DNA of 64,000 nt from Synergistales bacterium (GTDB lineage Bacteria; Synergistota; Synergistia; Synergistales; JAFGMB01), in the NCBI GenBank assembly GCA_963666205.1, contig OY762654.1, forward strand, positions 1,003,220 to 1,067,219. Reading direction: 5' to 3'. Numbering within the stretch: position 1 is the first letter of the stretch; every line of letters begins with the position of its first letter. Under the pieces are notes generated by a model that was not told the origin of the DNA, did not search any database, and worked only from the letters and a program-made list of their open reading frames with translations. Below, piece by piece: positions 421 through 55,965 of the stretch. The translations under genes were made by a program, and so were the position numbers.

Positions 421-1731
421 TTATTCTTTAAATATGGTCTGTTCCTTTATTTCTGTAGACATAGCCTTGAAAGCCCTCTGAAGGAGCTCTCTTCTCTTCT
501 TCCTGTCTCCTTCGGGTCCTGATTCAGGATCTCCTACCGGATGAGGGATAGCCACACCGGGAACTATCCTGTTGGCTCCAACTGTGAGCATTATAGGTAC
601 TATTGTTGCTATCTGGACTACAGGGATACCGGCTTCTTTCTCTATTTCCCGAACCATCGATGCACCGCATCGGGTACAGGTGCCTCAGGTGGATGTGAGA
701 ATGACAGCATCAACACCAGCCTCTTTAAGTTCCTTGCCGATGGCCTGACCGAAACCTTCGGCATTGGCTACTGCTGTACCGGTTCCGGTAGTACAGTAAA
801 CGAAATCATGAAGCTTGCCGAAAACTCCTTCTTTTTCCATCTCCCGCATAATATCAAGGGGAAGGACTACATCAGGGTTATCGTTCGCATATACCCTGTC
901 ATAACCTCCATGGATGGACTCGTAATTTTCCGGTGTAAGGTCTTCGAGTTCGGAGATATTGTATTTGCCGAATTTCTCAGCAGAAGAAACCCTTATGTGA
1001 TCAGGATTACCGAAGGGAACGATGCCGCCGGAAGTACAAAGGGCAATAGTGGCCTTACTCAGGTCAGCAATGGGAGCTGCCGGATCTATCTTTTTGAATA
1101 CCGGCATTTCGAGTTCTGTTTCGAAAGCTTCTCCCCGGATCTTCCTGAGCAGCATATCAACTCCTCTTTCTGCTCCTGACTTGTCATGGAAAAAGCTTTT
1201 ACGGATACCTCTGTGGATATAACCTTCAAAGCGGGCTGGGCCAAGTTTCTCTTTTTTCAGCAGTTTCAGAGCAAGAGTAACCATTCTGGACAGGGCATCT
1301 CTCATACCCCTGGCGCTGTCACTGGTTTCGACAATGTATGTTTTTTTATGGTACATTTCGACACCGGGGTTTTCCCCATAAAGGGCTGTAACTGTGGGGA
1401 TCCCAAGCATTTCTCCCGCAGCTGAACATATATCACCACAGGCAACGCCATAACGGCCGGCATTGAAACCAGGACCGGCAATAAGCATATCGGGCTTGAA
1501 AGCCTTTATCATTTCAACACACTCAGCCTGGGCTTTTTCCATATTCTCACCGTAATAACTGTCACCGCAGATAACCGTACCTACGACTTCGGCCTCTCCC
1601 TGAAGCAGGTTCTGAAGCTGAAGTCCGGGACCCACTATCCCGTCCCGGGATGATGGTGGTACATGGGCTGTATCTTCTCCGCCCATTCCTGCATAAAACT
1701 GATTTATATAATGAACAACCCTGTAGGTCAT
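421..1731 (-). CDS. grdB: Glycine/sarcosine/betaine reductase component B selenoprotein subunit (GrdB/GrdF type), 436 codons including one UGA-encoded selenocysteine.
   Basis: The ORF track splits it into 685..1731 (ending ILTST) and 421..657 (starting MVREIEKEAG). The separating stop is TGA (complement 685-687), and the 27 nt between the two ORFs are in frame. The joined protein reads ILTST-U-GTCTRCGASMVREIEKEAGIPVV, the conserved selenocysteine motif of GrdB-family proteins. Confidence 0.9.
653..675 (-). promoter_or_regulatory. Candidate SECIS hairpin for the grdB UGA.
   Basis: The minus-strand RNA reads ACC-CGAUGC-GGU-GCAUCG-AU-GGU and starts at the 10th nt after the UGA. It has a 6-bp perfect stem, a GGU apical loop, and an ACC/GGU extension with an AU bulge. 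Position and G/U loop are in line with bacterial SECIS elements. It has not been energy-evaluated. Confidence 0.4.
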
Positions 1732-28614: not shown

Positions 28615-29316
28615 GCCCTGTCCGGTAAACCGATTTTGGATTTTAGATTTTGGATTTTAGATTAGATCCATTGAGTTTCTCCGTGGTGAAAAGCTTCTGG
28701 TGCTGTTTTTTTCTTTTATCGTGCAAAATAGATCCATCATTTTGCACAGTAGAAAAAAGATTTGAGGGCTTCCTCTGCGACCTCTGCGGTAAACCGATTT
28801 TAGATTTTGGATTTTAGATTTTGGATTAGATCCATTGAGTTCCTCCGTGGTGAAAGGGTTTGGGTCCTGTTTTTTTCTTTTATCGTGCAAAATAGATCCA
28901 TCATTTTGCACAGTCGACAAAGTGGCCTATTTCTTGATCTCCTAGACCCGCGAAGCGTCCGCCCGTCCCCGGTTTATTCAGTGGTTTTTGGCGGATCTGC
29001 GGTAAAACAGCTTTTGATTTTGACCTGGTTTCCCTCCGTGCTACTCCGTGCCCTCCGTGGTGAAACAGGTTTTTGGGTTTACGGTTCTAATCGTGCAAAA
29101 TAGGTCCATCATTTTGCGCAGCACACCATTGTTTATGTTTTACATCTGCGTTACTCTGCGCAACCTCAGCGCTGAAAGTCCGCCACTACTTGGGTCTAAT
29201 GGTTTTATACGATGGTTTACGGCGGATCCTCTGCGGTAAACCGATTTTGGATTTTAGATTTTGGATTTTAGATTTTGGATTAGATCCATTGAGTTCCTCC
29301 GTGGTAAAACAGCTTT
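28615..29316. repeat. Mosaic repeat patch: M1/M2 blocks, GATTTTR heptamer arrays, three hairpin A copies, and modules 5 and 6.
   Basis: The module set is the same as at 41-56 kb. Heptamer arrays lie at 28631-28668, 28795-28832 and 29241-29285. Hairpin A copies lie at 28721-28747, 28885-28911 and 29093-29119. A CTCCGTG x3 block lies at 29030-29060. Confidence 0.9.
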
Positions 29317-41239: not shown

Positions 41240-41460
41240 GAATCGAAAATCTAAAATCCAAAATCCAAAATCGGTTAACCGCAGAGGGTCCGCCGTAAAC
41301 CATCGTATAAAACCATTAGACCCAAGTAGTGGCGGACTTTCAGCGCTGAGGTTTCGCAGAGTAACACGCAGGAAGACAAGAACCGTAGGGTGCTGCTTTA
41401 GCGCACCGAAACGACCAAGGTTGATAGATGTCACGAAATCGTAAATTTGTACCAGGAAGG
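41240..41460. repeat. Mosaic repeat patch in inverted orientation: heptamer array, M1, module 5, and a degenerate hairpin B.
   Basis: This is the reverse complement of the module string seen at 29141-29290 and 42829-43000. Confidence 0.9.
41351..41415. repeat. Left arm of the perfect 65-bp inverted repeat bracketing the DUF4143 ATPase gene.
   Basis: By manual reverse-complementing, it is identical to 42829-42893 (GTCGTTTCGGTGCGCTAAAGCAGCACCCTACGGTTCTTGTCTTCCTGCGTGTTACTCTGCGAAAC). Confidence 0.9.
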
Positions 41461-42825: not shown

Positions 42826-43710
42826 TCAGTCGTTTCGGTGCGCTAAAGCAGCACCCTACGGTTCTTGTCTTCCTGCGTGTTACTCTGCGAAACATTTGCG
42901 CTTACAGTCCGCCTTAACGTCTTTGTAAGATGGTTTGCGGCGGATCCTCTGCGGTAAACCGATTTTAGATTTTGGATTTTAGATTTTGGATTAGATCCAT
43001 TGAGTTCCTCCGTGGTGAAAGGGTTTTAACGGTTCAGCTTTACGGTTCTTAGGTTTAACTCGTGCAAAATAGTATCACCGTTTTGCGCAGTAGAAAAAAG
43101 ATTTGAGGGCTTCCTCTGCGCTCTCTGCGCCCTCTGCGGTAAAATAGCTTTTGATTTTGACCTGGGTTCCCTCCGTGGTGAAAGGGTTTAACGGTTCAGC
43201 TTTACGGGTTTTCATGGCACAAAGCTGCGCTTTCGTGCCTCCACAAAACCTTTATCTCAGTAGCATCTGGTCCGAATGTACGAATCTTTCATCTTACTCC
43301 TGAAGAGTTACCCCAAGGGTTTATGTCTTCCTCTGCGCTCTCTGCGCCCTCTGCGGTAAAATAGCTTTTGACTTTGACCTGGGTTTCCCTCCGTGTACCT
43401 CCGTGCCCTCCGTGGTGAAAAAGTTTGGGGTGGATGTTATAGTTACTGGTTTTATTGTTTCCATGGCACAAATCTCCGATTTCGTGCCTCCCCAAAACCT
43501 TTATCTCAGTAGCATCTGGTCTGAATGGATGTTGACATGGAACTCAACTTTATCTTACCGGCCCGAAGGTCCGCCCGTCCACGGTTTGTTTAGATGGGTT
43601 TTGGCGGATTTCCTCTGTGCTCTCTGCGCCCTCTGCGGTAAAACAGCTTTTGACTTTGACCTGGTTTCCCTCCGTGGTACTCCGTGTCCTCCGTGGTGAA
43701 AAGGTTTGGG
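42826..43710. repeat. Mosaic repeat array: four consecutive M1-linker-M2-hairpin super-units.
   Basis: M1 blocks lie at about 42945, 43113, 43328 and 43610. M2 blocks lie at about 43005, 43168, 43385 and 43665. Hairpin A lies at 43062-43088. Hairpin B copies lie at 43216-43239 and 43465-43488. Confidence 0.9.
42829..42893. repeat. Right arm of the 65-bp perfect inverted repeat.
   Basis: It begins 3 nt after the ATPase stop codon. See 41351-41415. Confidence 0.9.
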
Positions 43711-45075: not shown

Positions 45076-45164
45076 ATGCGCACCCCCAAAATCAAAAAAT
45101 ACAGAAGATATATTCTGCAAATATATCTTCTGTATTTTAAGGGCTGCTCTTATAAATTGCAAAT

Positions 45165-45547
45165 AGTCCTTTCGGTGCGCTCTCTGCGGTAAACCAGCTT
45201 TTGCCTTAGGTTTTATGTTTTCCTCAGATATTCCTCCGTACCCTCCGCAGTAAAAGTGTCTACTGTTTTCAGGTTTTATGTTTCCCTCTGTGCCCTCCAG
45301 GTCTAATCTTTACCATGGCACAAAGCTGCGCTTTCGTGCCTCCACAAAACCTTAAAGTTAAGATGTAATCTATCTGAACTGTCAAAAAAGGAATAAATCC
45401 TGAATATTATGTCAAAGAAGTCTTGTTTTCCTCATGTTTTACCTCTGCGGTACTCTGCGTGACCCCTGCGCCCTCTGCGGTAAAACAGGTTTTGACTTTG
45501 ACCTGGGTTTCCCTCCGTGGTGAAAGGGTTTTAACGGTTCAGCTTTA
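45165..45547. repeat. Mosaic repeat patch.
   Basis: M1 blocks lie at about 45178 and about 45440-45485. A degenerate M2 lies at about 45230 and an M2 at about 45510. Hairpin B lies at 45317-45340. The terminal module TTTTAACGGTTCAGCTTTACGG overlaps the stop codon of the next gene. Confidence 0.9.
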
Positions 45548-47724: not shown

Positions 47725-47895
47725 AACAATTTTACCGCAGAGGACGCAGAGAACGCAGAGGAAAGCGTAACCCTGAGTGAACCATTTTTCTTTAACCTGC
47801 TGCGTATATATTTCCGAGTTCATCCGCTCAGACCTTATCCAACTTAGACTGAGGTTAATGGATGTCACATAATCATAGATTTGTGCCAGGAGAAA
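47725..47895. repeat. Inverted copy of the hairpin B-tail-M1 element (about 165 bp).
   Basis: The reverse complement aligns along its length with 51753-51925. Hairpin B lies at 47864-47887 and M1 at 47731-47761. Confidence 0.85.
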
Positions 47896-47930
47896 CTCTA
47901 GCCATAAATTCTGGCTGGTTACTGGATTTA

Positions 47931-48308
47931 CTACAGCCCGTTGGCAAATCGGGTTATACCATCCTTAAGTTTGACTACATTGAAATTAATAAGCAATCCT
48001 AGTTTCTTGCCGCTCAGTTTCAAGTAAGAAAGGATCTGAGCCTTATGTATATCCGTTATTTTTTCAACGGATTTAAGTTCAATAATAATCTCGTCCTCTA
48101 CAACCAGATCCAGACGATAACCCAAGTCTATTTTGACTTCATCATAAATCACAGGAAGAACTTTCTGGGACTCAACTTTAAAGCCTCTTTTATTTAATTC
48201 ATAACAAAGACAAGCTTCATATGAACTTTCGAGAAGACCCGGACCTAAAGCAGAATGTACTTTAACAGCGCTATCAATAATTTCTTTGCTTATCTCATTT
48301 ATCTCCAT
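47931..48308 (-). CDS. GxxExxY protein (small PD-(D/E)XK nuclease-superfamily protein).
   Basis: A 125-aa protein with GPGLLESSYEACLCYEL (the GxxExxY motif) and D...ELK core residues. It is a paralog of 55280..55657. Confidence 0.85.
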   Translation of the reverse strand: MEINEISKEIIDSAVKVHSALGPGLLESSYEACLCYELNKRGFKVESQKVLPVIYDEVKIDLGYRLDLVVEDEIIIELKSVEKITDIHKAQILSYLKLSGKKLGLLINFNVVKLKDGITRFANGL

Positions 48309-48384
48309 AGGTCTGAATACCCCCCAATTCAGTCATGACAAAACCCTAACCATTCTACAACAAAATTGTTTTTGGTTTTGCCTC

Positions 48385-48890
48385 TAAGTCGTGCAAAACC
48401 GAGTCTGGTTTTGCGCAGTAGGAAAAAGATTTGCGGGTTTCCTCTGCGCTCTCTGCGCCCTCTGCGGTAAAACAGGTTTGAGGGTAGATTTTATAGTTTC
48501 CGTTTTTATTGTTTCCATGGCATAAATCTACGATTTCATGCCATACATCAACTTTGAGGTAAAGTAGTATCTAGTCCGAACATTCTGAACCCAGAATTGG
48601 GAAAATCCCATATTCCGCAATGTTTTAAGCTTTTCCTCCGCGGTACTCTGCGCTCCCTCTGTGTCCTCTGCGGTAAAACAGGTTTGAGGGTAGATTTTAT
48701 AGTTTCCGTTTTTATTGTTTTCATGGCACAAATCTACGATTTCGAGCCTCCCCAAAACCTTTATCTTCGTAGGATATGGTCTGTCCGGACAAATATCACA
48801 TGTTATTCATGAACAGTTATACCAAGGTTTTACGCCTTCCTCCGTGGTAAAAGGGTTATAACGGTTCAGCTTCACGGGTTTTACTCTTGA
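48385..48890. repeat. Mosaic repeat patch.
   Basis: Hairpin A lies at 48391-48416. M1 blocks lie at about 48440 and about 48635. Hairpin B copies lie at 48519-48542 and 48725-48748. An M2 lies at about 48838. Confidence 0.9.
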
Positions 48891-48923
48891 AAAAGGAAAC
48901 TTCATGTTTCAAAGTAAACCATT

Positions 48924-49505
48924 TTATTTTACTCTCATTACAACTCCGCCATTGCCCCCAACATTTGCTGGATTTTCCGATGCTATAAATAAACTCTTCG
49001 AAGGATCATCAAGATTCTCGCTCAGGGAACCATCATAGATCCCGCTTTCGGGAGACATCCTTTCCAGCTGTTTTCTGATCGAATAATCCGCATAGGTATT
49101 AGTAACATTGGCTGCAACATAAATATGAACATCTGGAGTGGCATAGGAAGGATCGCTTCCCGGCCCGGAAACATAGATAAAGTACGGGTTCTTTGAAGCA
49201 TTATTCCAATCCTTTGGACCCGTTATACTGTGAGGTTCAGGTATACCCCTGTCCAGGTATTGGCTCAGGCTGTTTATGCTAATTACACCCCAACCCTGCT
49301 CACTCTGGGAAAACCACTGCTGATTATCAGCATAGTACATAACTACTGCAGTCTTGAGAACTTCCAGGTTTGAGACTATCTTTGTCGCCTCGCTCTTACT
49401 GGTCGCGCTTCCGATTGTGATCATAAGAGAACCTGAGAGAATGCCTATAATGATGATTACAATGAGGATCTCTATAAGGGAAAAACCTCTGCTGCGCTTT
49501 TTCAA
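48924..49505 (-). CDS. Prepilin-type N-terminal cleavage/methylation domain protein (type IV pilin / pseudopilin-like).
   Basis: MKKRSRG-FSLIEILIVIIIIGILSG is a class III signal sequence. The TTG start follows AGGGAGG. Confidence 0.8.
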   Translation of the reverse strand: MKKRSRGFSLIEILIVIIIIGILSGSLMITIGSATSKSEATKIVSNLEVLKTAVVMYYADNQQWFSQSEQGWGVISINSLSQYLDRGIPEPHSITGPKDWNNASKNPYFIYVSGPGSDPSYATPDVHIYVAANVTNTYADYSIRKQLERMSPESGIYDGSLSENLDDPSKSLFIASENPANVGGNGGVVMRVK

Positions 49506-49694
49506 CTCTCAATTACCTCCCTGGCTGATTAGTATGTGGGATCTTGAACACCATTGAATAGTGTACAGACCTGTTTTCTAACCACCAGGGCAAAAAAGCC
49601 TGTTTTCCAGGGGACAGGAAGACCAATTTCCCAGGGACTTATGGACCATTTGTATTTCTCATTCGCTCAAGTCCCCCATACCTGGGTGTATTTA

Positions 49695-50300
49695 GCCTTA
49701 TCGGTGCGCTGGAGCGCACCCTGCAAAACTTTATCTTACCGGGCCGAAGGTCCGCCCGTCCTCGATTTGTTTAGTGGGTTTTGGCGGCTTTCCTCCGTGG
49801 TAGAAAGGTTTACGGTTCTAAGGTTCCAATCGTGCAAAATAGTATCACCGTTTTGCGCAGCATGTATTATAACAAGTGGTTATGACTTTCCTCCGTGCTA
49901 CTCCGTGACCTCCGTGGTAGATAGGTTTTAGCGTTTGGGCTTTACGGGTTTTCATGGCACAAATCTACGATTTCGTGCCTCCCCAAAACCTTTATCTTCG
50001 TAGGATATGGTCTGTCCGGACAAATATCGGATGTTATTCCTGTTCAGGTATACCAAGGTTTTACGCCTTCCTCCGTGTCCTCCGTGGTGAAAGGGTTATA
50101 ACGGTTCAGCTTTATGGGTTTCCATGGCACAAATCTTCGATTTCGTGCCTCTCAAAAACCTCAATCTTAGTAGTATTGGATCTTGCAAAACATAACCAAA
50201 GATTAGTCGCAGCATATTTATACAAAAGGGGTTAAGCTTTCCTCTGCGCTCTCTGCGCCCTCTGCGGTAAAACAGGTTTTGACTCTGATTTTGACTTTGG
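49695..50300. repeat. Mosaic repeat patch.
   Basis: Module 6 lies at about 49725-49795. M2 blocks lie at about 49790, 49890 and 50070. Hairpin A lies at 49832-49858. Hairpin B copies lie at 49956-49979 and 50126-50149. An M1 lies at about 50240. Confidence 0.9.
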
Positions 50301-50360: not shown

Positions 50361-50918
50361 TTACTTCAGCAGCCACACCAGCGGTAAAGCCAGCAGACCC
50401 ATCAGAGGGCTTACAGCCCCGGCGTTACAACCGCCGCCACCGCCACCACCGGAAGTCTCTTCTTCTGCATTTACAAGATAGACCTGGGAAGTTGAAAAAT
50501 ACAGAGAAGGATCTGTTATTGTGGCAACTCCATTCACGACCTCGATAAAATCATAATAATCAGAATGATTCTGGATCAATATACCATCGGGATCAAGACC
50601 GGTACCCCTCACATCAATGGTTACTGTTCCAACAGGCGTAGTATCGTAGACTGCTTCCACACCCGCAAGGACGACGATCGTATAAGTTCCGCTTACCGGC
50701 ATATTAATATGATCACTGGTCACGCTGGAACTTAAAATACAAGAGGCACAGGAGTCCGTATCTGGAGAAAATATGATAGTCCCTGGATCAATGGACGTGT
50801 AAATCTCCGTATCGACATGTCCAACATGGCCTATATCATGACCTACCACAGCCATACCTACCGACGCAAAAACAAGAACAAGTGCTGCAGAAACTGCAAA
50901 AAGAACAACTTTTTTCAT
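50361..50918 (-). CDS. Secreted protein with a C-terminal Gly-run/Cys/TM/basic sorting signal (Synerg-CTERM-like).
   Basis: The signal peptide is MKKVVLFAVSAALVLVFASVGMA. The C-terminus is ...EEETSGGGGGGGCNAGAVSPLMGLLALPLVWLLK. The RBS is GGAGGGGG. Confidence 0.6.
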   Translation of the reverse strand: MKKVVLFAVSAALVLVFASVGMAVVGHDIGHVGHVDTEIYTSIDPGTIIFSPDTDSCASCILSSSVTSDHINMPVSGTYTIVVLAGVEAVYDTTPVGTVTIDVRGTGLDPDGILIQNHSDYYDFIEVVNGVATITDPSLYFSTSQVYLVNAEEETSGGGGGGGCNAGAVSPLMGLLALPLVWLLK

Positions 50919-51090: not shown

Positions 51091-51243
51091 TTTAACCGCA
51101 GAGGACGCAGAGAAAACCGGGAGGAAAGCATAAAAACATCGCTATGTAGATTTTATTAATCTCCTGTTTTATATATACATGACCTGATCCTACTAAGATA
51201 AAGGTTGATGTATGGCATCAAATCATCGATTTGTGCCAGGAAG
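51091..51243. repeat. Inverted copy of the hairpin B-tail-M1 element.
   Basis: M1 lies at 51091-51113 and hairpin B at 51214-51237. It is colinear with 54837-54985 and 47731-47887. Confidence 0.85.
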
Positions 51244-51444
51244 CAAATATTTACAGTGGGCATCGAAGAAAATAACCTGGTTTTTTACCTGGAATATTTT
51301 AAATTGACTTAATTTTTATGTTCCATCATGTGATACCAGCGGCAGAAAAAGGTTCTCTTTTCTGCCGGCAGTCAACCTTAAAAAACAAAGAAATATTGTA
51401 ATAAAACCGTAGAGTCAAAAACATTGCCCAAATTAAGTTTCAGT

Positions 51445-52217
51445 ACTTGGGTTCCCTCTGCGCTCTCTGCGCCCTCTGCGGTTAGCTTAGGGTTAATAGG
51501 GGTAAAAGGTTTACGGTTCAGGTTTACGGGACCAATCGTGCAAAATAGTTCCATCATTTTGCGCAGCATAACAAGGAGTGTTAAGGGCCGAATGTCCGGC
51601 CAACCCGGCTTTAAGTTTTTTAGGAAGATCTTTGACGGAGGTTTTTGGCGGGTTTCCTCTGCGGTAAAAGAAAGATACTGAATTTGTTTTTGACTTTGGT
51701 TTTATTGGTTAAGAGGTTTTCCTCTGTGACCTCTAGTTCGAAAGCACTACCTGGCACAAATCTACGATTTGGTGCCATACATCAACCTCAGTCTAAGTAG
51801 CATAAGATCTGAGTGGACGTAACATCGGAATAAACACGCAGTATATGGATAAAATGGTTTGACGGGTTTCCTCAGGGTCTACCTCTGCGAAACTCTGCGT
51901 AACCTCAGCGTCCTCTGCGGTAAAACAGCTTTTGATTTTGACCTGGTTTCCCTCCGTGTCCTCCGTGGTAGATAGGTTTTAGCGTTTTGGCTTTACGGGT
52001 TCCCATGGCACAAATCTCCGATTTTGTGCCTCCGGAAAAACTTGTTCACCAGGTTTTGTAAGTTTCAGGTTCTCGTTCTTAATCGTGAAAAATCTAGTCT
52101 GATTTTTCGCAGCATGTTTCTTAAATCATTTGGTCTCGTTTTCCTCTGCGCTTCCTCTGCGCTCTCTGCGCCCTCTGCGGTAAAATAGCTTTTGACTTTG
52201 ACCTGGTTTCCCCTCCT
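51445..52217. repeat. Mosaic repeat patch.
   Basis: M1 blocks lie at about 51455, 51655, 51880 and 52140. Hairpin A copies lie at 51538-51564 and 52085-52110. Hairpin B copies lie at 51753-51776 and 52007-52030. An M2 lies at about 51950. Confidence 0.9.
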
Positions 52218-52434
52218 GCAAAGTTATCAGTCTTGCATACATACGGTTAAAATCAAGGTCTGACCCCATTCTTTTTTTATACTGATAATTCTTTTCATAA
52301 ATTTCACAGGACCTTTTTCCCACTTTTTTCGGGTCAGGATCTGTATTTAATCTTGACCCTATGGTAAAACTGAATAAAAGTTCAAATATTTAATATTCCA
52401 TACTTTTAAGAATATACATTATAATGTTTTTCTC

Positions 52435-54836: not shown

Positions 54837-55245
54837 GTTTTACCGCAGAGGTCGCAGAGAGCGCAGAGGAAACCGAAAGGCAGGCATAAAAATTTCGCTG
54901 TGTAGGTTTTTATTAATCTCCTGTTTTATACATGCATGACTTGATCCTACTAAGATAAAGGTTGATGTACTTTTGTGCCATGGGCATAAAGAAAATCATC
55001 AATTCTAAGAGCAAAACATGTAGTTACCTCAGAGGACGCATCGGAAAATTATAAAGAATGCAATGTTGTTTACTCTTTTGACCGTTTATTATTCTAGAAG
55101 GTTTTGGCGGATTTCATGTAGACAGGAAGTTCTAGGGGGCTAATCGTGAAAAATCTAGTCTGATTTTTCGCAGTAATACAGATTTTACAGGTTTAACGGT
55201 TTCCTCTGCGCTCTCTGCGACCTCTGCGGTTAGCTAAGGGGTTTA
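54837..55245. repeat. Mosaic repeat patch.
   Basis: An inverted M1 lies at 54837-54869, with a truncated hairpin B at about 54965-54980. The forward hairpin A-M1 unit lies at 55144-55232. Confidence 0.9.
55144..55232 (+). repeat. Left copy of the 89-bp direct repeat flanking GxxExxY gene 2.
   Basis: 88/89 identical, by manual comparison, to 55868-55956 (TCGTGAAAAATCTAGTCTGATTTTTCGCAGTAATACAGATTTTACAGGTTTAACGGTT[T/C]CCTCTGCGCTCTCTGCGACCTCTGCGGTTA). Confidence 0.9.
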
Positions 55246-55279
55246 GGTTTCACGGTCGAGAAGGGGTTTTATTCAATTT

Positions 55280-55657
55280 ATGGAAATTAATGAAATTAGC
55301 AAAACAATTATCGACAGTGCTTTCCAAGTTCACAAAGCATTAGGACCAGGTCTCCTCGAAAGTGCATATGAAGCCTGCCTCTGCTACGAACTCAAGAAAA
55401 GAGGATTTACAGTAGAATCCCAGAAAGTTCTCCCGATAATTTACGATGGACAACAAATTGATGTTGGTTATCGCCTGGATCTTCTTGTACAAGATCAGGT
55501 CATAGTAGAACTCAAATCTGTTGAACATATAAATGAGGTACATAAAGCACAGATACTCTCGTATCTCAAACTTGGTAATAAGAAACTCGGACTACTTATC
55601 AATTTCAACGTAGCCAAAATCAAGGACGGGATAACCCGTATCGTCAACGGTTTGTAG
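55280..55657 (+). CDS. GxxExxY protein (PD-(D/E)XK nuclease superfamily), paralog 2.
   Basis: A 125-aa protein with GPGLLESAYEACLCYEL. By hand alignment, about 78% of residues are identical to 47931..48308. Confidence 0.85.
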   Translation: MEINEISKTIIDSAFQVHKALGPGLLESAYEACLCYELKKRGFTVESQKVLPIIYDGQQIDVGYRLDLLVQDQVIVELKSVEHINEVHKAQILSYLKLGNKKLGLLINFNVAKIKDGITRIVNGL

Positions 55658-55744
55658 GTTTTTTCGTCTTATAATATCAAGGTTTTGATTTACAAAGAAA
55701 ATTGTTAATTAGGTTTTATCTAGTTATGCATATTTGAGGGTTTA

Positions 55745-55965
55745 GTCGGTCAAAATGGGTTGATCATTTTGACCAGTAGAGATTTTTATACAAAAAAGAT
55801 GTTTTTAGGTTTTCTCTGCGCTCTCTGCGGTTAGACAGGATTTAGACTTTAGGGTTGCCGGTTTTATTCGTGAAAAATCTAGTCTGATTTTTCGCAGTAA
55901 TACAGATTTTACAGGTTTAACGGTTCCCTCTGCGCTCTCTGCGACCTCTGCGGTTAAACAGTATT
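55745..55965. repeat. Mosaic repeat patch, including the right copy of the 89-bp direct repeat (55868-55956).
   Basis: A hairpin A variant lies at 55748-55774. An M1 lies at about 55812. A hairpin A lies at 55870-55895. An M1 lies at about 55925-55955. Confidence 0.9.

Follow-up and report, generated by a model that had tools for sequence, protein, structure and literature searches.

The hairpin family described here, designated hairpin A, lies in a 64,000-nucleotide (nt) stretch of a Synergistales bacterium genome (assembly GCA_963666205.1, contig OY762654.1, positions 1,003,220 to 1,067,219 of the forward strand), hereafter called the window. The present study showed that hairpin A is a strand-specific stem-loop kept by compensatory change, with a stem of 9–10 base pairs (bp), a loop of 6–10 nt, and an invariant unpaired foot of TC on the 5' side and AG on the 3' side. 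The 31-nt consensus reads TC-[GTGC]-AAAAT-[loop 6–10 nt]-ATTTT-[GCRC]-AG. Hairpin A is not free-standing; it is one module of a larger polar repeat unit, whose turnover involves the complete unit. Only a few Synergistales genomes carry hairpin A, whereas the block that ends the unit is shared across phyla.

A preliminary description of this DNA listed 11 copies, and we verified all of their coordinates; every copy is on the forward strand. The list was also complete, since a covariance model run on the window with its filters off recovered exactly these sites. They scored 38–48 bits, the next best matches scored 16 bits or less, and the gap between was empty. The low-scoring matches were partly the reverse strands of hairpin A sites, while the rest were unrelated weak matches. 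The strict pattern GTGCAAAAY-N5..12-RTTTTGCRC matched nine times in the window, against 0.00 expected from 100 dinucleotide shuffles. All 11 copies are intergenic, and 38 more were found in approximately 125 kb of related and strain contigs. The four stem variants seen in the window agree with those described previously. The copies are as follows, with the TC and AG feet included in the coordinates.

43060..43090, forward strand: focal copy, TC-GTGCAAAAT-AGTATCACC-GTTTTGCGC-AG, with T·G wobbles at pairs 2 and 9; 40.6 bits
28719..28749, forward strand: GTGC/GCAC, loop AGATCCATC; 48.0 bits
28883..28913, forward strand: copy within a 164-nt tandem duplicate of the unit of the 28719 copy (repeat family D16)
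29091..29121, forward strand: GTGC/GCGC, loop AGGTCCATC; 48.1 bits
48389..48418, forward strand: pair 9 changed to C-G, a tenth pair (C-G), and hexaloop GAGTCT; inside a GxxExxY nuclease cassette (see below)
49830..49860, forward strand: identical to the focal copy
51536..51566, forward strand: loop AGTTCCATC
52083..52112, forward strand: GTGA/TCGC (pair 4 changed from C-G to A-T), hexaloop TAGTCT
55144..55173, forward strand: GTGA/TCGC variant
55746..55776, forward strand: GGTC/GACC, with pairs 2 and 3 both replaced; 38.3 bits
55868..55897, forward strand: GTGA/TCGC variant

Three sets of related sequences were compared with the window. The relative JAENYO01, labelled 'Acetomicrobium hydrogeniformans' metagenome-assembled genome (MAG) B5_bin.13 (loci L002–L019), is approximately 90% identical in syntenic genes. 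A Synergistales MAG (loci L006, L007, and L011) carries an orthologous gene that is 74% identical to that of the window, and the strain-level contigs L095 and L096 are 95–97% identical.

To avoid selecting for pairing, we scanned the window and approximately 90 kb from relatives with the pattern TC-N4-AAAA-N6..14-TTTT-N4-AG, in which the outer four pairs are free. All four outer pairs were formed in 34 of 34 matches. At least nine distinct stem types with zero mismatches were present across the window, the 90%-identical relative, and the 74%-identical MAG, including GTGC/GCAC, GTGC/GCGC, GTGA/TCGC, GTGA/TCAC, and GGTC/GACC as well as GGGC/GCCC, GAGG/TCTC, GTAA/TTGC, and ACAC/GTGT. In the hairpin A alignment, 100% of the 243 cells were paired, two-sided changes occurred at five of the nine pairs, and 11 further pair types were observed. 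None of 500 column shuffles reached the observed value on any of five measures, and pairing fell to 29–55% of cells in register-slid controls. The pair states are connected by wobble intermediates: pair 9 occurs as T-A, T·G, and C-G, and pair 2 as U·G, U-A, G-C, A-U, and C-G. Only two of the 49 copies were imperfect, one with a 1-nt deletion (L013, 6695–6723) and one with a 1-nt insertion in its T-run (L095, 6653, a metagenome contig). The paired stem changes had been read in the preliminary description as a sign of selection on the fold. The covariation test on the window and its relatives, with stem mismatches absent among the scanned copies and compensated pairs numerous, supports this reading more strongly than was first shown.

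The same description held that structure rather than sequence is conserved. Structure is indeed kept; however, sequence is kept too. Twelve alignment columns are invariant (TC, A4, T4, and AG), and half-site scans allowing mismatches found no intact copy with an altered core. Information content is at background just outside TC and AG, except for a T/G-rich leader and a YA that directly follows AG. The loops comprise 27 distinct sequences among the 34 copies, while the stems have no mismatch. However, these loops do not differ freely, as had been proposed, but fall into two classes, one of 9 nt (WGNTCCAYC-like) and one of hexaloops (RRGYCT). In the latter class, the bases on either side of the loop are complementary in most copies (C-G, G-C, or T·G) and add a tenth pair. 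Orthologous hairpins of the window and the strain contigs differed by 0 substitutions in 183 + 91 nt, whereas divergence was 2.5–2.9% in other intergenic DNA and 5.6–7.3% in coding DNA.

The evidence on the folding molecule points to one strand. All non-Watson-Crick pairs are G·T on the strand that reads from TC to AG, and never A·C; the opposite strand would have C·A. The U·G pair at position 2 alone occurs in 16 of the 27 distinct copies. All 27 distinct copies folded into the full stem, with energies between -7 and -16 kcal/mol. Compared with its complement, the top strand was more stable in 18 of these copies under RNA parameters and in 21 under DNA parameters. At each hairpin A site, the top strand scored 38–48 bits against 16 bits or less for the reverse strand. 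The TC and AG feet are asymmetric and not mutually complementary, which gives hairpin A its polarity. Wobbles on one strand, invariant asymmetric feet, and fold energies together indicate that a single strand, either RNA or single-stranded DNA, is constrained. A folded RNA, a single-stranded DNA, and a cruciform DNA had all been suggested previously; the first two agree with these results, whereas the cruciform is disfavoured because the wobbles fit the TC-to-AG strand alone and the flanks are asymmetric. The orientation of hairpin A is unrelated to that of neighbouring genes, and five of the 11 copies (28719, 28883, 29091, 48389, and 49830) are antisense to both. A cis-acting role in mRNA is weakened by these five copies.

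The repeat unit to which hairpin A belongs consists, in order, of a T/G-rich leader, hairpin A (or a second hairpin, B), a tail of 22–42 nt, and a block built from one to three 9-mers. Blocks of the CTCTGCG ('M1') and CTCCGTG ('M3') types occur, and they end in GGTRAAA; the M1 block is CTCTGCG-NN three times, followed by this ending. The remaining parts of the focal unit are as follows.

43021..43059, forward strand: T/G-rich leader, GGTTTTAACGGTTCAGCTTTACGGTTCTTAGGTTTAAC (repeat family D12)
43091..43113, forward strand: tail between hairpin and block, TAGAAAAAAGATTTGAGGGCTTC (repeat family D2)
43114..43144, forward strand: triple 9-mer M1 block closing the unit, CTCTGCGCTCTCTGCGCCCTCTGCGGTAAAA (repeat families D7 and D8)

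Hairpin A had been placed always 25–30 nt upstream of an M1 block. A downstream block of the same orientation is the rule; however, the spacing is approximate, being 23–42 nt in eight of the 11 window copies when the block was located by regular expression. Copy 29093 (numbered here from the stem) has a degenerate block approximately 22 nt downstream, by eye, and copies 28885 and 51538 carry an extra module between hairpin and block, which places the block of 28885 at 130 nt. A block of the same orientation begins 22–45 nt downstream in 28 of 46 copies, and the reversed block is never the nearest. Approximately 35 forward and four reverse block termini are present in the window, all in intergenic stretches between 28 and 56 kb.

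The units of the window form same-orientation tandem arrays, with all 11 hairpin copies direct and no inverted doublets. Three inverted doublets, with hairpin spacers of 66–73 nt, were found in loci L010 and L013 of the relatives. They form palindromic units of 230–260 bp composed of a reverse block, a reverse hairpin A, a centre of approximately 70 nt, hairpin A, and a block. The two hairpins of one L010 doublet carry the unrelated stems GGGC/GCCC and ACAC/GTGT, and, thus, it is the local fold that is kept and not long-range complementarity. Units are bounded by inverted 9-mer blocks in L010 and L013 and in the window at 47730-48472, 51091-51484, and 54838-55232. No target-site duplication was visible at L013, L104, or L102.

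We also noted a possible decayed hairpin A at 50181-50212 (TC-TTGCAAAAC-…-ATTAGTCGC-AG), which is below the covariance-model threshold and occupies the usual slot, approximately 25 nt ahead of an M1 block. Hairpin B, TGGCAC-AAATC-TAC-GATTT-C-GTGCC (TGGCACAAATC-TAC-GATTT-C-GTGCC), has a bulged base and fills the slot of hairpin A in the unit. It shows some compensated changes (GGCAT/ATGCC and AAAGC/GCTTT) and several uncompensated ones, and is less strictly kept than hairpin A. Its TGGCAC start was considered as a sigma-54 promoter; this was rejected because, by inspection, GG and GC are off the -24/-12 spacing. Another module, CCGATTTTRGATTTT…GGATTAGATCCATTGAGTT, contains GATTTTRG repeats phased at 8 nt and always lies between two blocks. 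The positions of these modules are as follows.

43215-43240, 43464-43489, 45316-45341, 48518-48543, 48724-48749, 49955-49980, 50125-50150, 51752-51777, and 52006-52031: hairpin B
near 41430-41454, 47863-47888, and 51213-51238: hairpin B, reversed copies
28617-28697, 28781-28861, 29235-29315, and 42946-43026: GATTTTRG-repeat module

Over the genome collection, the strict hairpin pattern matched only JAENYO01, one Synergistales MAG, and six singletons in unrelated genomes, a number close to chance by our own estimate (approximately four expected). The hairpin A consensus is unchanged in the MAG with the 74%-identical orthologous gene. The block has a different distribution. Its exact 28-mer, CCTCTGCGCTCTCTGCGMCCTCTGCGGT, was present in 75 metagenome contigs of 41–73% G+C, often as inverted pairs, and no hairpin A was found in those of the M1-anchored contigs that were searched for it. 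The block thus has a much wider distribution than the hairpin. Literature searches found no described repeat families for Synergistota and no paper mentioning the block sequence.

Differences between closely related genomes involve whole units. The strain contigs differ from the window by complete sets of leader, hairpin A, tail, and block, and L095 has two extra units with junctions inside the 9-mer block (L095 3139-3392 versus window 48838-48849; L096 589-931). Between 28.6 and 29.3 kb, the window has three hairpin units versus one in the relative, which in turn has, upstream of the YjbH gene, approximately 300 nt of additional units in reverse orientation, with a hairpin A among them. Locus L019 of the relative is missing window positions 48860-49787, which comprise a pseudopilin-like gene (48924-49505, N_methyl domain) and its flanks, and an array of approximately 1 kb (51102-52233) upstream of the Wza gene. 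Within the arrays, small genes are apparently gained and lost.

Two of the genes among these units encode GxxExxY nucleases of the PDDEXK_3 family, with the following arrangement in the window.

47730..47760, reverse strand: inverted M1 block, left end of the cassette
47931..48308, reverse strand: GxxExxY/PDDEXK_3 nuclease gene (125 amino acids) within the block-bounded cassette
48442..48472, forward strand: forward M1 block, right end of the cassette, with hairpin A (48389-48418) subterminal to it
55280..55657, forward strand: second GxxExxY gene, with hairpin-plus-block units on both sides (bracketed region 55204-55958)

The segment 47723-48537 contains, in order, a reverse block, hairpin B, the GxxExxY gene, hairpin A, and a forward block, with the next hairpin B as its end. 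Its identity to L019 4356-5169 is 98.0%, whereas the flanking genes YjbH and Wza are 90.4 and 86.8% identical, respectively, a difference suggesting that the cassette was recently exchanged or homogenised. In the loci examined, every GxxExxY/PDDEXK_3 gene lies within approximately 100 nt of 9-mer blocks. We chose six homologues with no criterion other than taxon label or contig size (Planctomycetaceae, 'Methanomethylovorans', Treponemataceae, Phycisphaerales, and two unlabelled contigs; 36–65% G+C), and all six had a reverse block 5' and a forward block 3' of the gene. The 9-mer variants at GxxExxY genes were CTCTGCG, CTCTGTG, CTCCGTG, and CTTTGTG. Bracketing blocks were found at the GxxExxY (PF13366/TIGR04256) loci L051, L092, L050, L097, L098, L100, L102, L103, and L104. 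The ends of the cassettes are inverted triple 9-mers, of the ACCRCAGAG type 5' and CTCTGYG…GGTNAA 3'. The most compact cassette (L104) consists of a block, 20 nt, the gene, 20 nt, and a block, and lies between the genes for a tRNA synthetase and chorismate mutase. These loci look like minimal cassettes bounded by terminal inverted repeats, and gene-less 'empty' palindromes also occur. The GxxExxY proteins are 62–78% identical across the sampled phyla, with E27, D67, E77, and K79 invariant. The protein model has a PD-(D/E)XK fold (predicted local distance difference test score of 95) with only generic fold matches (template modelling score about 0.5), and no sequence match was found in the PDB. 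The function of the PDDEXK_3 family is listed as unknown, with multiple horizontal transfers (PMC3424549).

Our best reading is that hairpin A is a recognition signal, recognised through structure plus sequence, within a repeat resembling the repetitive extragenic palindromic (REP) sequences and bacterial interspersed mosaic elements (BIME); we assign this reading a probability of roughly 45%. The top strand of hairpin A would fold as a single strand, more probably in DNA than in mRNA. DNA was placed somewhat ahead of RNA because the orientation of the hairpin ignores transcription and its polarity follows the terminus of its own unit. A protein may then read both the shape, for which any complementary outer stem would serve, and the fixed bases (TC, A4/T4, and AG). 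If this recognition were required for the copying, recombination, or retention of the unit, copies losing their pairing would vanish and compensated variants would persist. The recognition of hairpins in REP sequences and their doublets (REPINs) by REP-associated tyrosine transposases (RAYTs) may serve as a model, with the co-located GxxExxY nuclease as a candidate recognising protein only.

Several observations weigh against this proposal. No transposase, recombinase, or RAYT was present among the approximately 40 open reading frames (ORFs) of the window in Pfam and NCBIfam scans, and no recogniser was found. The tolerance of G·T pairs fits DNA and RNA alike, and the orientation of hairpin A relative to GC skew was consistent at approximately seven loci and inconsistent at three, which is not significant. 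Neither a single-unit pair of empty and filled sites nor a target-site duplication was found among the genomes compared, and the insertions and deletions of units may also be explained by unequal recombination between blocks. Concerning the nuclease, minimal GxxExxY cassettes of other phyla lack the hairpin (L104), which is, thus, not needed for this type of cassette, and most hairpin A copies in the relative are not adjacent to a GxxExxY gene.

Alternatively, the arrays may be transcribed and the hairpin may act in RNA, similar to the REP/BIME hairpins of Escherichia coli, as a block to 3'-5' exonucleases or as a site bound or cleaved by an RNA-binding protein or RNase, whether between cistrons, in 3' untranslated regions, or in array transcripts. 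We regard this as a serious rival, although a less probable one. Strand-specific covariation through G·U intermediates is typical of RNA helices, and the hairpin folds stably as RNA. The invariant single-stranded TC and AG of the foot could well be read by an RNase or RNA-binding protein with sequence specificity. Of the 11 window copies, six lie sense to an adjacent gene, including 55746 and 55868, which lie 3' of the GxxExxY gene 55280-55657; however, the other five are antisense to both flanking genes, and the functional strand of the hairpin in the cassette at 47730-48472 is antisense to the nuclease mRNA. Promoters were not enriched in the arrays (20 sites versus 17 ± 4.3 expected), and Rfam gave no match to the repeats at the gathering score, nor at E ≤ 5 over 42.8–52.7 kb.

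It is improbable that the hairpin has no function and owes its pairing to quasi-palindrome correction (intrastrand template switching), conversion between copies, and recent amplification from a few masters. Identical or near-identical copies are numerous, GTGA/TCGC with one and the same loop is found in three window copies, and tandem duplicates occur. Moreover, the arrays recombine and diverge less between strains than coding DNA, which fits homogenisation. However, template switching yields perfect Watson-Crick palindromes, whereas more than half of the distinct copies have T·G at pair 2. The unique stems ACAC/GTGT, GGGC/GCCC, GAGG/TCTC, and GTAA/TTGC cannot derive from conversion by other copies, the loops vary widely over stems free of mismatches, and the constancy of the consensus in the 74%-identical MAG also argues against this explanation. 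The persistent wobbles and the unique compensated stems make a purely mutational origin unlikely.

We attach very little weight to a duplex DNA operator, namely, an inverted repeat bound by a dimeric protein without the hairpin ever forming. Such a site would agree with the intergenic inverted repeat, its invariant A4/T4 core, and its spacer of roughly constant length; however, the outer half-site bases switch to unrelated, always complementary sequence, which a duplex reader would not require, the spacer ranges from 6 to 10 nt, the TC/AG flanks lack two-fold symmetry, and the wobbles break the symmetry of the duplex. An intrinsic transcription terminator is hardly tenable: the stem-loop is stable and intergenic and some units of the relative lie just past stop codons, but the stem is AT-rich and followed by YA and mixed sequence in place of a U-tract (the T-rich tract is upstream), orientation is unrelated to gene direction, and a terminator scan flagged none of the 11 copies (10 sites versus 14.3 expected).

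Among known systems, hairpin A belongs to the REP/BIME/BOX type, as a new variant and not as a new category. Similar to REP, REPIN, and BIME sequences of Enterobacteria and Pseudomonas, it is an extragenic imperfect palindrome of approximately 30 nt, with many copies and a hairpin kept across variants, and occurs as singles and in tandem mosaic arrays with other short motifs, with strong polarity; inverted doublets resembling REPINs were seen in the relatives (L010 and L013). However, REP sequences have GTAG or GTGG at the 5' foot, whereas hairpin A has invariant TC 5' and AG 3'; the AGTAG that follows the stem in a minority of copies reads CTAC, not GTAG, on the other strand. Lacking the GTAG foot, hairpin A is, strictly speaking, no REP sequence. 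The stem of hairpin A is AT-rich, the sequences are unrelated, and the triple 9-mer block to which it is tied is absent from REP/BIME. REP and REPIN sequences are mobilised by RAYT Y1 transposases, and, as mentioned above, scans of the window ORFs yielded no such protein (Y1 HUH transposase, PF01797).

BOX elements of Streptococcus pneumoniae and the Correia/NEMIS, ERIC, and RUP repeats are likewise intergenic, with modules that vary in number and order and stable predicted folds. These repeats, which resemble miniature inverted-repeat transposable elements (MITEs), are also composite units bounded by inverted terminal sequences. They differ in sequence and host phylum; in the present case, the terminal module is found across phyla while the hairpin is lineage-specific, and no target-site duplication or cognate insertion sequence (IS) transposase was identified. 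Regarding the features of MITEs, terminal inverted repeats are present and the sole enclosed gene is the GxxExxY nuclease. The subterminal hairpins of IS200/IS605 elements and palindrome-associated transposable elements are strand-specific, single-stranded DNA hairpins read by shape and a few fixed bases, with compensatory variation. In contrast to the inverted, block-bounded ends found here, those elements lack terminal inverted repeats and have hairpins on one strand; moreover, neither a Y1 TnpA nor a TnpB gene was seen in the window. In integron attC sites, too, structure is conserved over sequence and one strand is functional, and the sites separate small gene cassettes in strain-variable arrays. 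However, they are 57–141 nt long versus 31 nt for hairpin A, which has a perfect stem of 9–10 bp and lacks R''/L''/L'/R' boxes, the GTTRRRY core, and extrahelical bases; no IntI or tyrosine recombinase is present in the window. The integron reading was dropped together with those of DNA uptake signals (USS/DUS) and CsrA sites, since defining features were absent. A CRISPR array was also rejected because spacing is irregular (122 nt to approximately 14 kb), the DNA between copies is repetitive as well, and cas genes are absent.

A broader proposal concerns the GxxExxY cassettes themselves. Each composed of a gene for a 125-amino acid GxxExxY nuclease between inverted blocks, they may constitute a class of tiny mobile cassettes present across prokaryotes, in which hairpins A and B would be lineage-specific accessory signals. 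A structure-specific nuclease acting on its own palindromic ends and on gene-less 'solo' units would then drive spread, array formation, and the turnover of cassettes between housekeeping genes. We regard this scenario as doubtful, with the odds well against it. No description of such cassettes was found in the searchable literature. The intervening sequences of 23S rRNA, in which ORFs for S23p four-helix bundles are flanked by inverted repeats, may offer a parallel: a small ORF of unknown function lies between inverted repeats able to pair as a long RNA duplex, and is scattered across phyla. However, the GxxExxY cassettes have a PD-(D/E)XK fold and lie between protein-coding genes, not in rRNA.

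The window contains other features. A near-perfect 20-bp palindrome at 45096-45138 (AAAATACAGAAGATATATTT-GCA-…), at the 5' end of a DUF234 ATPase ORF, was flagged by the terminator scan and gave weak matches to microRNA models; it has no relation to hairpin A. At 647-684 (reverse strand), a SECIS_4 element that reaches the Rfam gathering score sits between a 78-amino acid ORF (421-657) and the ORF matching glycine reductase selenoprotein B (685-1731), an arrangement that fits a UGA-split grdB gene and the use of selenocysteine. G+C content is 33–37% between 58000 and 64000, over glycosyltransferase genes ending a polysaccharide locus, versus approximately 47% elsewhere, which suggests that this segment is horizontally acquired or variable. 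An exact look-up of the protein encoded by the Wzz gene of the window returned no record. The ORF at 50361-50918 has a Synerg-CTERM domain, which confirms the phylum Synergistota.

GxxExxY is a very large, horizontally mobile protein family, and the block-plus-gene architecture across phyla is the more unusual of the present results. The triple 9-mer blocks are present in contigs of 36–73% G+C and consistently bracket GxxExxY genes, a pattern that we did not find in the searchable literature. If the hairpins and blocks are substrates of the nuclease, they would represent a new kind of minimal mobile element, which would explain the occurrence of GxxExxY genes between housekeeping genes across phyla. 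Hairpin A itself is a clean natural case of selection maintaining a helix at sites without an evident gene-linked role, and provides a tractable handle for finding its reader protein in Synergistota.

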